Assembly: GCF_050320075.1 (NCBI RefSeq)
Contig: NZ_CP190018.1
DNA length: 64,000 nt
Source of the DNA: Escherichia coli
GTDB lineage: Bacteria > Pseudomonadota > Gammaproteobacteria > Enterobacterales > Enterobacteriaceae
Reading direction: 5' to 3' (one strand)
Within the stretch, counting starts at the first letter, position 1. Each line of letters opens with the position of its first letter. The position numbers are program-made. This document shows, piece after piece, positions 42,001-64,000 of this stretch.

Positions 42001-45000
42001 TACTCTTTCAGATACAACGCATCTTCTGCGGAACTGGGGTTAGAGGCACCCAGAAGCAGACCAAAATTCAGGCTGCCGCTGTTTAAATCATCCGAGCGTT
42101 TAATGGCGACTTTCGACTCGCTCATATAGCGAGGCTGGCTGAAGATAGCCAGATAGATCAGCAGCACCGCCATCGGTGCCAGAATGATGATTTTCGCCAG
42201 GTGTTTTTGGATATCTGCCAGTGAGATGGCAGACAGACGAGCACGCATCCAGGATACGGCAGACTTCACTTTTATCAACATGTAACGATTATCAAAGTTT
42301 CAGTGGGGCGCAAACTCAATGAGAGACTAACCTCTCGCACCCCGTTGCTTAATTAGTCGAAAATGCGCACAAGGCCAGTGACTTTATTTGCCTTGTTGGT
42401 CACCAATAACGTTGAGACGCGGTGCTTTTGCATTTTTTCTTCCGCTTCAATGATCATGGTGTCTTCCGGTAGCGTCAGCGGTTCACGTGTCATCATCTGC
42501 GCAGCCGTGGCGGATGTCAGAGAATCCTCTTTTTCCATAAAGCGACGCAGGTCACCGTCGGTGATAATGCCCACTAGCCCACCTTCTGCGTCTTCTACCA
42601 TCACCATTCCCTGGCATCCGCTGGTGATACGTTGAATCACGGTTTTAAATGACGCATCCAGCTGTACCGCAGGAACATCATGCTGCATGACATCAGCAAC
42701 GCGGGTCAGCAGGCGACGACCTAATGAACCGCCCGGGTGATAGCGCGCAAAATCATTCGGCATAAATTTGCGTTGGTGGATCATGGCAATCGCCAGCGCA
42801 TCGCCGATCGCCATCGTCAGCGTGGTAGACGTTGTTGGTGCAAGATTATTCGGGCAGGTTTCATTCGCCATGTGGAGTTCCAGCACGGCATCAGCATTTT
42901 TCGCCAGCGTGGAATTTCCATTATTGGTAATGGCGATAATTCGGTTGCCGAAATTTTTCAGTGAAGGAACTAGCTTGAGGATTTCATCCGTTTCACCGCT
43001 GGCAGAAATAAGGATCAGAAGATCGTAAGGCGTAATCATGCCCAGATCGCCATGGAAAGCTTCTGCAGGATGAATAAAGAAACTAGGCGTACCCGTAGAG
43101 GCCAGCGTCGCTGACATTTTACGACCGACATGCCCTGATTTACCCATTCCCGAAAGAATAACGTGACCTTTACAGTTCATTATCAAATTAAGGACACGCT
43201 GGTACTGCCCGGAATCCAGTTGTTTAGACAAGTTTTGTAATGCTGCGCCTTGTTCTGCCAGAGTCTGGCGAACAGAGGTAATTAGATATGGATCGATAGT
43301 ACTGCTCTGGTCATCAGGTAAATGTCTTTCAGACATATCAGCTCCTTTGCACGGAAATAATGCCACAGTCACAACAAACCCGAACCCACTATAATTTATT
43401 TATGCTAAATCAATGGGTTGTAACAAAATTTTTAATGAATATAAAACCATGGTCAGTCCATGCTTATATGCAGGACTTATCACCTTCTTATTAAGTCGCA
43501 ATGTCTCATGGAGGTGCGAAGATGCTGCAATATTACAGGCGAGAAGGGGAACCAAATTTTGCCCACCTATTTAACACACCCCTACATTATGAACAAGGAA
43601 TTTAGGATTTTTATCATTTATTAAAATGTTTCCTACTTGACTATTAAGACCAAAAACAATTTATCAATTGATTATTTCCTTGTAAAAAAAGAACGTATGA
43701 CTATGTTATTAATAAATAAAACACGCAAATAATGGTGATGTTGTTTTGTGATTAACTATTTAAGTGCGGCATAATAAACAGGTTGACAATTTCTATGTAA
43801 AGAAGAGGAAAATAATAAAATTTTAGCGGTGACTATTGAATGATATGATAGTTGTGGTGTTGATTATTTCTGGTAATGAATGCGGAATTAAATCTGGCCG
43901 GATTGTATTTTTTCTATATCTATTTTTCAGGAGATTATTATTAAATAGAAAAATAACAATGGTGATTATCTCCGGTTGAGCTGGAGTCACGTATGCCAGC
44001 GAGTGCTTTCTTCCGGGCCTTCCTTCACTTCAGAGAAAGAGCCTATGGAAAAGAGGCAATCATCAGGCTCTTTTTGAGTCATATGCGCCGATAATCAACT
44101 GTCTTGAACGTAAAAATTATGGAGCAACATGATGCTACGATTCATTTCACTCTTCGTTCTTTCTGAGCATTGCGTTCAGGATGGTCAGCAATTTACGCAT
44201 ACAGTCAACCAGCGCCACTTTTTTGGTTTTTCCGGCTGCTGGCAGATGCATGTAAAACGCCTCTTTCACCGGATTAAACCAGGTTACCACAAGCGCTGCC
44301 ATGTGCAGGGCTGCTCTTGCCTCCGTACGCGCACTGGCGTCGTTCGGCCAGCAGATATGTGTGGGATAACAGGGATGTTATGTGAACTGAACTGTGTTTT
44401 GTTAGCGGGGGATGTTTATTGATGATTCGGGAGTGTTTAAGACCTGATGGCGTTATGCTCCCAAGTTTATTTTATATAAAGATCCAAAAGCAAAAACCCG
44501 CCTTGTGGGCGGGTTCTTAAGAATTAGTGGTGCCCGGACTCGGAATCGAACCAAGGACACGGGGATTTTCAATCCCCGTGTCATAAAATTCAGATAGTTA
44601 CGGGCATGTCAAGTTGTTGTTGAAGTCTTTCATGCGCATCCGATCACATAACTGTCGATAGGACGCAGATATGAAAATACTTCCCGTTGTCTCAACAAAA
44701 GGTGGCGAAGGTAAATCAACACAATCCGCTAACCTGGCTGGTTTTCTCGCCGATGCAGGTATCCGTACCCTGCTGATTGACGGAGATCATGCTCAGCCCA
44801 CGGCAAGCAACATCTTTCCGCTGACATATGAAGCGTCAGCCGGTCTTTTTGAGTTGCTGATGCGCACGGCTGACCTCAGTCATCCCGATAACATCATTTC
44901 CCGCACGGCTATCGACGGACTCGATCTGATAGTCTCCAATGACCCTCATGAGCAGTTAAAAACTGCGATGCTTCACGCCCCGGATGGTCGTCTGCGCCTC

Positions 45001-63000: not shown

Positions 63001-64000
63001 TACCAGACCGGGCCGGTCAGACTGCGGAGCGCGCTGCAGATGATGGCGGGGCCGGCATGGCAGCTTGAGGTGGATGATGTGCAGCGCGTGGTCTGTCACA
63101 GTCTGCGTGAGGGTTATCAGTTACCGGCACGCCAGCTGGCGCCGGTACCGGCGGTGGTGAAGGTATCCGGTGCGGAGCAGAAAAAATGAGTGAAAAGCAA
63201 CAGGAGATATCAGCCGCTGCAGGTGGTTCAGGTGGCACCACACCGTCAGGAAGGGTGAAACGGCGTCCCTCTCCCGGTCTGTTCGCAGGGCTGGTGACGG
63301 TGGTGATGATGGCGGTCGCGGTTGCCGGTCTGGCTCGTTATACGGGAGAGCAGGACAGGCGAATGACTGCGCTGGCGGTGCAGATGAAGGCGTATTCTGA
63401 TGCGCTCGCCTTGTCCGGAACGGAACTGGTACCACTGAGGGAGAGGCTGGCTGAGACCGAAAAACAGCTGAAGAGTGTGGCGGAACGTATTTCTCAGCTG
63501 GAAAAGCGTCCTGCACTGACGGAGGAAGAGCATGCGCGTACGGGAGAGATGGCCGCCAGCCTGGCATCACTGCAGACCTCACTGGCGCAACAGGGAGAAA
63601 CGCTTCGCACGTATGAGCAGCGACTGGAGAAGGTGGAGAAGACTTCAGTCACCCCGGTATCACCGTCATCTGCGAAAGGCGCGGGCGGGACGATGAAGGG
63701 CACAGCGGCGGTTGCGCCACAGAAGAAACGAATGTCTGCCGGCGTGCCGGTGGTCAGTCGTACCGCGCCGTTTGTTCTGACCGGGACAGAGCAGCGGGGA
63801 GGCCGTACGTATGCGGCAGTGGCCCCCCGTGGATTCAGCAGTCTTGCTGATGTGACGTTACTGGGTGAAGGGGAGAGCACGACAGGCTGGGTGCTTGAGC
63901 GTGCAGGACGTGGCGAGGCCACGTTCCGGGTGAATGGTCGTCAGGTCCGGGTCATGGTGGAGTGAGAAAATGAAGCTGAAAAGTCTGTCACTGGCGCTCA

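Follow-up and report, generated by a model that had tools for sequence, protein, structure and literature searches.

Among integrative and conjugative elements (ICEs), those of PAPI/pKLC102 type were first described in Escherichia coli with ICEEc2 of the avian strain BEN374 (Roche et al., 2010, J Bacteriol 192:5026), which belongs to the pKLC102/PAGI-2 (PAPI-like) family and integrates at phe tRNA genes, according to the passages that cite it in PMC11537424, PMC13127887 and PMC6761156. According to a 2024 study, such ICEs have hotspots at pheV and pheU, and a 2026 study reported that ICEs at these two genes drive chromosomal transfer resembling that of high-frequency-of-recombination (Hfr) strains. 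Here we analyzed a 64,000-nt stretch of the E. coli contig NZ_CP190018.1 (assembly GCF_050320075.1), called the window below, whose part from 44578 to 64000 is very probably the parA-proximal arm of a pheV-integrated ICE of ~75-80 kb from the SPI-7/ICEEc2/SGI-4 branch. Compared by description, it resembles ICEEc2 in being an E. coli ICE at a phe tRNA gene. The host of ICEEc2 is poultry-associated, like those of most carriers found here; ICEEc2 was reportedly described at pheU, while the window copy lies at pheV.

This branch is part of the PAPI-1/pKLC102/ICEclc superfamily. SPI-7 of Salmonella Typhi shares with the window the STY4528, STY4534 and dnaB families, whose SPI-7-based models match above their cut-offs, the phe-tRNA target and, as seen in the related E. 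coli strain YZLc1-3, a type IVB pilus and a GI-type type IV secretion system (T4SS). In contrast, the proteins are ~55% identical to the Salmonella homologues and the cargo is different, with no Vi locus seen in the YZLc1-3 relative. SGI-4 of monophasic S. Typhimurium ST34 (PMC6543542; 'pSGI4' NZ_CP061046.1) has the same gene order from parA to traD and a 36-bp palindrome array of 10 sites after the rep gene, but differs in Rep (55% identity), in ParB (57%), in the palindrome (GyTGGCAcTGCCArC) and in its copper, arsenic and silver cargo. It was assembled as a circle in which int adjoins parA. pKLC102 and PAPI-1 of Pseudomonas aeruginosa have a backbone of the same superfamily, while their target is tRNA-Lys, protein identity is ~30% and the repeat period is 57 bp. 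In ICEHin1056, a Haemophilus element with distant sequences, a parA-dnaB-parB-ssb-topB module lies at the island end, and mutations of parB, orf4 and topB lower transfer up to 1e5-fold (PMC3739013, PMC2258188).

Since SPI-7/ICEEc2-type ICEs at phe tRNA genes are published and the genes are named by the NCBI pipeline, the element is of an ordinary, already described kind, automatically annotated by RefSeq, and not novel. The comparison of its repeat array, together with boxes inside its rep gene, is a modest lead; the element itself is routine.

The parA-proximal arm and its insertion at pheV

Gene families were assigned with NCBIfam and Pfam models at their curated cut-offs, and gene names were also taken from the annotation of identical DNA by the NCBI pipeline (PGAP). 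From 44671 to 63965, the plus strand carries an uninterrupted series of open reading frames (ORFs), and the GC skew is strongly positive across this range. The features of the junction and the arm are as follows.

44491-44519, minus strand: native terminator of pheV transcription, chromosomal side of the junction (hairpin and T-run)
44528-44577, minus strand: displaced 3' end (50 nt) of tRNA-Phe from pheV, forming the att repeat on the parA side (alignment to the pheV of Ec-U3 and YZLc1-3)
44578-44605, minus strand: ICE terminus with a decayed tRNA-like 5' half (GCCCGTAACTATCTGAATTTTATGACAC)
44671-45549, plus strand: ParA/Soj-type ATPase, first ICE gene (ParA/MinD-type NCBIfam matches; PGAP 'ParA family protein')
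45890-46615, plus strand: hypothetical protein
46608-47996, plus strand: SPI-7-type island DnaB helicase, dnaB-PI (NF040583 'SPI-7-type island replicative DNA helicase', 684.5 bits, cut-off 655)
47986-49635, plus strand: ICE ParB-family protein (TIGR03764, 383 bits, cut-off 144)
49628-50359, plus strand: DUF2786 and DUF7168 protein (Pfam)
50356-50934, plus strand: DUF2857 protein, BisC-like, FlhC/FlhD-like activator subunit (Pfam E=5.8e-66)
50931-53670, plus strand: block of small genes with variable content (names from PGAP on identical DNA)
50931-51179, plus strand: ParE toxin-like protein of the variable block (PGAP)
51662-52261, plus strand: ead/Ea22-like protein of the variable block (PGAP)
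53931-55196, plus strand: STY4528-family 'pathogenicity island replication protein' (NF040582, 390 bits, cut-off 130)
54607, 54706 and 54750 (54607-54765): three boxes GTTCGGAwwCCGwAC within the rep-like gene, where it encodes the linker
55210-56130: 36-bp tandem array with 26 palindromic sites (Tandem Repeats Finder, unit listing)
56131-56234: AT-rich spacer from the array to the PFL_4669 gene (sequence)
56235-56960, plus strand: PFL_4669-family ICE protein (TIGR03761, 238 bits)
56977-58995, plus strand: DNA topoisomerase III, TopB (NF005829, 846 bits)
59686-60150, plus strand: STY4534-family/DUF3577 protein (NF040584, 198 bits; Pfam DUF3577 1.7e-58)
60466-61023, plus strand: single-stranded DNA-binding protein, Ssb (TIGR00621, 173 bits)
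61070-62038, plus strand: Rpn-family recombination-promoting nuclease, cargo or accessory (TIGR01784, PGAP)
62611-63189, plus strand: PilL2, PFGI-1-class ICE pilus lipoprotein, start of the transfer module (TIGR03748, 130 bits)
63186-63965, plus strand: conserved hypothetical protein, followed outside the window by the TIGR03759 ICE gene

The conserved backbone of parA, dnaB(PI), parB, the rep-like gene, PFL_4669, topB, DUF3577, ssb and pilL is thus present in a single orientation, and every gene that a preliminary description of this DNA had listed was found on the plus strand in the order given there. The window proteins exceed the curated cut-offs both of the models named after SPI-7 (STY4528, STY4534 and the SPI-7-type DnaB) and of those named after PFGI-1 (ParB TIGR03764, PFL_4669 and PilL2). 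These matches, together with the downstream genes of a relative, support the proposed arm of a SPI-7/PAPI-1/pKLC102-family ICE. The window also ends where the pil/transfer module begins, as had been proposed, since only PilL2 and one more gene of it lie inside. The rest of the variable block at 50931-53670 encodes hypothetical proteins, and the content of this block varies among close relatives. The synteny of the backbone is shared with SGI-4 and with elements of Pseudomonas and Stutzerimonas.

The integrase, relaxase and T4SS of this copy lie outside the window, which ends at 64000, and this weighs against the ICE reading. The content of the right-hand ~60 kb of this copy was therefore estimated from relatives. 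Strain YZLc1-3 (NZ_CP123240.1) is 100% identical to window 20000-61215, the difference there being an ISCro1 copy (L001 33242-35857) that breaks the Rpn gene, which is intact in the window. Beyond the point where the window ends, YZLc1-3 continues with the ICE proteins TIGR03759, 03747, 03758, 03745, 03750, 03749, 03752, 03751, 03757 and 03756 (an MPF-G T4SS), traD, a conjugative ATPase and TraG. Next come a type IVB pilus operon (pilM-pilV) that includes a shufflon adhesin, a helicase resembling UvrD, a relaxase with a TraI domain, a tyrosine recombinase (47945-48934 in locus L002) and then an intact pheV (tRNA-Phe, 49131-49206) beside yqgA. The whole YZLc1-3 element, insertions included, measures ~80 kb. 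The preliminary description had made its ICE reading depend on conjugation and integrase genes downstream; both were found in this relative, and the reading stands on that point. The right-hand part of the window copy would be expected to carry the same modules.

The insertion itself is exact, as indicated by the unoccupied site of strain Ec-U3. This genome is 100% identical to window 20000-44577, its match stops exactly at 44577, and it then continues directly with the remainder of pheV and yqgA, so that the order of the empty site is yqgA, pheV, an IS110 remnant and kpsF. The terminator at 44491-44519 has the same sequence as the DNA just 3' of the intact pheV in Ec-U3. The att repeat at 44528-44577 is perfect over 50 nt and contains a 22-bp crossover core, GGGGATTGAAAATCCCCGTGTC, which comprises the anticodon arm and variable loop. 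At the far ICE end in YZLc1-3, the complete tRNA-Phe has the T-arm GGTGG...CCGCC and not CTTGG...CCGAG. This hybrid T-stem differs by two compensated base pairs that are supplied by the ICE (YZLc1-3 pheV, L002 49131-49206, against Ec-U3 pheV, L086 5302-5377), so the tRNA-Phe of ICE-occupied strains is a hybrid with its 3' half from the ICE. The displaced copy in the window retains the native T-arm, which places the crossover within the shared 22-bp core. By analogy with relatives, a tyrosine recombinase would have crossed over in the anticodon-arm core of pheV. The ICE gives pheV a new 3' half at its far (int) end, and the original 3' 50 nt with the native terminator stand displaced at 44491-44577, against the kps capsule locus. 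Excision acting at the pheV repeat, as the preliminary description envisaged, would be consistent with the precise empty site of Ec-U3.

ARAGORN found no intact tRNA within the window. In several RefSeq genomes, PGAP calls a 'tRNA-Ser' of 78 nt with 6/7 acceptor pairs that is the att junction itself (44528-44605, minus strand); the same call stands at L001 16529-16606 and L083 330-407. ARAGORN calls nothing at the window junction. This 'tRNA-Ser' is probably an annotation artefact, and it resembles a decayed tRNA-Phe copy carried in attP.

At least 18 of 5,426 complete E. coli genomes have at least 80% of the arm, most of them from poultry isolates, and the full-length matches are ~98-100% identical. 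At least two diverged rep lineages occur in E. coli (100% and ~62% identity). An apparent rep swap in two E. coli matches that cover only the distal array (H43 and H46) was rejected, as these are the same ICE with shorter arrays. In the chicken isolate YZLc1-3, an ISApl1-mcr-1-pap2-ISApl1 transposon lies beside traF within the ICE (L002 23203-29012). A near-identical copy of the element thus carries mcr-1, that is, colistin resistance on a pheV ICE; a literature search on strain YZLc1-3 or on an mcr-1-bearing ICE returned nothing specific.

We consider it improbable that the source genome holds an immobilized, decayed remnant without ICE function. Such a remnant would agree with the position of the right arm outside the window, with the ISCro1 copy and the mcr-1 transposon beside a traF gene inside the ICE of the closest relative, and with the degenerate boxes in the window rep gene. 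However, each of the 20-odd genes of the left arm is an intact ORF, the att repeat is perfect and an isogenic empty site exists, near-identical arms recur in the genomes counted above, and ICEs of the same type from clinical E. coli were shown to transfer experimentally in published work.

The 36-bp array and the protein that may read it

The ParB-like protein and the DUF2857 protein match, by comparison of features, a BisD/BisC-type activator pair, which would be more than a set of partition genes. The ParB-like protein has 549 aa, with the motifs G93NTR96 and E135NEVR139 and a helix-turn-helix at ~165-222; a long linker of acidic character and a helical domain at the C-terminus follow. BisD of ICEclc has 550 aa, G92NTR95, E136NELR140 and the same architecture (PMC12409273), and ICEclc BisC has DUF2857 (PMC7423338). 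BisD and BisC are the master activator of transfer competence in ICEclc, where BisD, loaded on palindromic bisS sites as a CTP (cytidine triphosphate) clamp, slides over ~50 kb (PMC7423338, PMC12409273). In the window, the BisDC-type protein features were found, namely a ParB of ~550 aa with a CTP pocket (GxxR, ENxxR), helix-turn-helix, linker and C-terminal domain, and a DUF2857 partner, which besides shows a weak FlhD match (0.0022, Pfam). A Pfam search of the ParB-like protein gave no match. The order Arc, ParB, DUF2857, STY4528, PFL_4669, DUF3158 and ssb in the Pseudomonas and Stutzerimonas relatives matches alpA..bisD-bisC-orf96323-orf95213-inrR-ssb of ICEclc. The genes named 'parB-like' and 'DUF2857' in the preliminary description are therefore present, while a plain partition label is incomplete in view of their BisD/BisC-type features (PMC7423338, PMC12409273).

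Compared by published features, the likeness to ICEclc includes the size and equivalent motif positions of the ParB-like protein, the DUF2857 partner gene, odd-length palindromes (here candidate targets) that have a single base at their centre, and the position of these sites ~1 kb from an orf96323/STY4528-type gene that itself carries a TTCGGAnTCCGAA palindrome. On the other hand, ICEclc has two single bisS sites (GAGCTATCCCCnGGGGATAGCTC) inside inrR and ssb instead of a tandem array, and dnaB and DUF2786 are interposed in the window operon. By homology with ICEclc, the ParB-like protein with its DUF2857 partner would be loaded on palindromic sites as a CTP clamp and would switch on the transfer genes. 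The island DnaB, STY4528, STY4534, Ssb and TopB would process and replicate the excised circle, as suggested by the homologous module of ICEHin1056.

The array begins 14 bp after the rep stop codon and lies 5.6 kb from parB. Tandem Repeats Finder placed it at 55211-56130 with a period of 36, 25.6 copies and a score of 1462. It contains 26 palindromic sites, (T)GTTGCCAgTGGCAAC(A) plus GGTTAAAAA per unit, so that each 36-bp unit is the 17-bp dyad TGTTGCCAgTGGCAACA plus GGTTAAAAA. The last two sites are the symmetric variant GTTGGCA.TGCCAAC. Counted on both strands, the palindrome gave 52 matches compared with 0.07 expected.

A periodic array within about 200 bp after the rep stop was found in ~35-40 of ~80 species-representative relatives, usually with a period of 36 bp, but also of 57, 105-107 or 118-119 bp. 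Among E. coli elements, the copy number ranges from 6 to 65 units, and the 65-copy array (2.3 kb) belongs to one bovine E. coli, OkiPb01714 (L088 10083-12426). The palindrome arms hold the frame GyTG-N7-CArC while the inner bases shift symmetrically, giving at least 10 classes, and the Photorhabdus palindrome (GATTAGAgTCTAATC) departs further. A Pseudomonas veronii plasmid (NZ_CP142042.1, L090 9341-10101) carries a 57-bp array of 13.4 copies after the STY4528 gene with the palindrome GTGTTGCGGcCCGCAACAC, which is of the same palindrome family in Pseudomonas-type relatives. In a Stutzerimonas plasmid (L091 5525, 9284, 9344 and 11192), the palindrome is dispersed upstream of the arc-parB operon, after rep, and after or at the end of ssb. 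Pantoea elements have no array after rep and instead have four 36-bp-spaced TGTTGCCAcTGGCAACA sites inside parB. In the Pantoea and Enterobacter ludwigii elements examined (L029 4531-4657, L032 4524-4650, L034 4531-4657), such sites encode a repeated peptide in the linker, and rep is not followed by an array.

To compare the candidate readers of the array, ParB was divided into residues 1-149, 150-222 (helix-turn-helix) and 223-300. Between the window and CM2, whose palindromes are GTTGCCA and GGTGCCA, the identities of these segments were 100, 76.7 and 98.7%, respectively. Between SGI-4 and an Erwinia psidii element, which differ in their palindromes, they were 100, 69.9 and 96.2%, and between two Serratia elements with different palindromes (L038, S. 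ureilytica, and L080, S. marcescens) 92.9, 74.0 and 75.6%. The Rep N-terminus, in contrast, was 97-99.5% identical within each of these three independent pairs. ParB residues 150-222 are thus a mosaic hotspot in exactly the pairs in which the palindrome switches. Moreover, Rep N-termini that are 99.5-100% identical stand beside three palindromes, GTTGCCA in the window, GTTGGCA in GPEC673 and GGTGCCA in CM2. In GPEC673, the PFL_4669 protein, DnaB and the Rep N-terminus are identical to those of the window while the palindrome is different, and its ParB carries L209M, R211S, N215R and S216A, convergent with other GGCA-class ParBs. PFL_4669 is 96.5% identical between SGI-4 and the Erwinia psidii element despite their different palindromes. 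The N-terminal helix-turn-helix of Rep (GKASRETVSRVLxMLRxTGW) is unchanged in all palindrome classes. Conversely, in two otherwise diverged E. coli elements with a common palindrome, ParB 150-222 is the best-conserved part (97.3%).

Since the palindrome switches together with swaps of the ParB helix-turn-helix while that of Rep is invariant, the array is more readily explained by ParB/BisD loading sites. We lean slightly toward this interpretation, in which the array is a candidate multi-copy ParB/BisD loading site (bisS/parS-like) or centromere. The loading sites, possibly also serving as a centromere used with ParA, would then not be Rep iterons. In the F-plasmid centromere sopC, 12 tandem direct repeats of 43 bp each contain an inverted repeat bound by a helix-turn-helix dimer of the ParB family. 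The window array resembles such a type Ia centromere in its tandem repeats with inverted repeats and in the presence of ParA on the same element, but it lies at a distance from parB, not directly after it, and the window ParB has an extra activator-type C-terminal domain.

Several points weigh against an array read by ParB. The window and OkiPb01714 share the palindrome although their ParB helix-turn-helix regions are only 70% identical. Distant Pantoea ParBs violate a simple R211/N215 rule, and the bisS sequence of ICEclc is unrelated to the window palindrome. All genes are linked, and co-inheritance therefore inflates the correlations. The literature also names equivalent repeats putative oriV (Juhas 2007). 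A residue rule (R211/N215 for GCCA, S/A211 with R215 for GGCA) fits E. coli, Salmonella and Mixta only and was dropped as a general code because of the distant Pantoea ParBs that break it.

The most serious competitor, which we nevertheless hold to be doubtful, is an iteron-type oriV, at which the STY4528 protein would bind the repeats, melt the AT-rich spacer and load the island DnaB. The pKLC102 oriV postulated earlier is said to consist of 16 repeats of 57 bp. The position of the array agrees with an origin, as it starts 14 bp past the rep stop, is followed by ~100 bp of AT-rich DNA, recurs after the rep homologue in ~35-40 of ~80 relatives, and is matched by the 57-bp array of 13 copies at the equivalent place in Pseudomonas veronii. 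In addition, database entries of relatives are circular 'plasmids' in which no other replicon is typed, iteron-like repeats were proposed as putative oriV for the superfamily (Juhas 2007), and a review cites the postulated pKLC102 oriV, a function that was postulated and not demonstrated. Iterons should, however, follow Rep specificity in their sequence, and here three near-identical Reps adjoin three different palindromes, the Rep helix-turn-helix staying constant while the palindrome runs through at least 10 classes. The dyad-symmetric sites at 36-bp (3.4-turn) spacing are also unlike classical iterons, the Pantoea elements have their sites in parB with no array after rep, and array lengths in E. 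coli drift between 6 and 65 copies. No origin-like inflection of the GC skew was found at the array, which disfavors an origin there only nominally, because the null is uninformative where all genes share one strand. The 'iterons' that the preliminary description placed downstream of the rep-like gene hence exist as a repeat array, while the iteron label was not upheld, as the repeats co-vary with ParB and not with Rep.

Much less probable are single-strand hairpins on the transferred strand, acting as a primosome or as a promoter signal on single-stranded DNA in the recipient. Symmetric, compensated arm changes, a strongly favorable predicted single-strand folding (z = -8.2) and the nearby ssb and topB would suit such hairpins. 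Yet with a single-base centre the stem can have no more than 7 bp, around a 3-nt loop, a hairpin signal would not be expected to co-vary with the ParB helix-turn-helix, and the folding does not discriminate between the explanations, as any palindrome array would fold equally well.

A protein-coding repeat gene is hardly credible. In its favor, PGAP calls ORFs in the array, reading frames of 323 and 381 aa run through it on the two strands, and the period, being divisible by 3, would encode a repeated 12-mer, VLPVATVVKKCx. A coding function is ruled out, however, by periods of 105-107 and 118-119 bp in relatives, which are not multiples of 3, and by an annotated strand that is plus in YZLc1-3 and minus in OkiPb01714 and CM2. 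In addition, the equivalent frame of L010 has a stop codon, and it is the palindrome symmetry, not the peptide, that is conserved. The arrays are annotated on either strand as 'beta strand repeat-containing protein', 'saposin' or 'hypothetical protein' (also at L089 9615-10506 and in H57-H65), and these array-derived annotations are likely spurious.

Boxes inside the rep gene

The STY4528-family protein has a winged-helix-turn-helix-like N-terminus, a disordered linker and a helical C-terminus. Pfam gave only sub-threshold helix-turn-helix and DnaD_N hints, and a sequence search of the PDB gave no match. The AlphaFold2 model was poor (pLDDT 59, pTM 0.25, from a 37-sequence alignment), and a Foldseek search of the PDB with this poor model returned nothing below E=2.7.

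In the linker-coding part, STY4528-family genes carry 2-4 boxes of TTCGG-N3-CCGAA, often extended to CTGAGTTCGGAnnCCGAACTCAG, at spacings of 33, 44/45 or 54 bp, which correspond to 3, 4 or 5 helical turns. At least two boxes were present in 72 of 83 loci. The rep genes (93 kb) contained 225 boxes compared with 24 in 984 kb outside them, a ~100-fold enrichment. In the window, the three boxes are slightly degenerate and spaced by 99 and 44 bp. Across the family, the last box is in another reading frame than the others, which argues for a constraint at the DNA level. The ICEclc 'bisS-3 candidate' CTTCGGAtTCCGAAG in orf96323 is the same motif, and BisD does not bind this candidate (PMC7423338, PMC12409273). 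An invariant Rep helix-turn-helix together with an invariant box suggests an arrangement like that of lambda O and ori. The boxes may thus be candidate Rep-recognition sites, comparable to the phage lambda ori inside gene O.

Combined with the array read by ParB, this leads to a broader proposal that we regard as evenly balanced. The putative oriV repeats of SPI-7, ICEEc2 and SGI-4 and the 57-bp arrays of Pseudomonas would form a hypervariable tandem platform of 6-65 copies for a BisD-type ParB-CTP clamp, with specificity evolving by swaps of the ParB helix-turn-helix that are coupled to a concerted change of the array, and with the Rep sites being the 3-4 helically phased boxes inside the rep gene. 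If the array is indeed read by ParB, the result is a testable model of how ICEclc-superfamily members in enterobacteria switch transfer on. The 'oriV' label of long standing would then be corrected, and these arrays would no longer be annotated as proteins.

The capsule neighborhood and smaller repeats

The ICE directly adjoins the capsule locus and the type II secretion system (T2SS) locus. The preliminary description had placed the ICE next to both; they lie on the left, where gspE, gspF, yghD and the kps genes were identified from the annotation of 100%-identical DNA. The distance of about 1.2 kb that it gave between the pheV repeat and kpsF was likewise confirmed, as kpsF starts at 43336 (PGAP, identical DNA), 1.19 kb from the repeat. 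Because such ICEs can drive Hfr-like transfer of flanking DNA (2026 study), the adjacent capsule genes are candidates for co-mobilization.

The capsule locus extends over ~28000-43372 (annotation from L001 1014-15337) and runs on one strand, kpsF-E-D-U-C-S and then kpsM-T, a layout that departs from the textbook convergent group 2 arrangement. A 1089-aa glycosyltransferase of the GT29 family (sialyltransferase-like) and a TPR protein follow kpsM-T, and the GC content of the 28-36 kb region is ~30%. Between kpsF and the pheV terminator lies a fragment of an IS110-family transposase (44148-44330); as the empty site of Ec-U3 has this fragment too, it predates the ICE insertion.

At 39050-39064, among the genes of kps region 1 and 5.5 kb away from the ICE, the array palindrome recurs in a perfect copy, GTTGCCAGTGGCAAC; chance alone would give ~1e-4 such copies. 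Since the ICE-free Ec-U3 has it in 100%-identical DNA, this copy is part of the capsule locus, and it is likely a coincidence.

Within the arm, topB and the DUF3577 gene are separated by 690 bp that contain a 46-bp direct repeat in two copies that are 87% identical (59381-59473). The 3' region of the Rpn gene (61829-61907) has 12-bp and 24-bp coding repeats of the AAGGCCTGGAGA type. Finally, comparison with locus L084 revealed a 257-bp duplication, at 61877-62133 and 62259-62515, with 94.6% identity.

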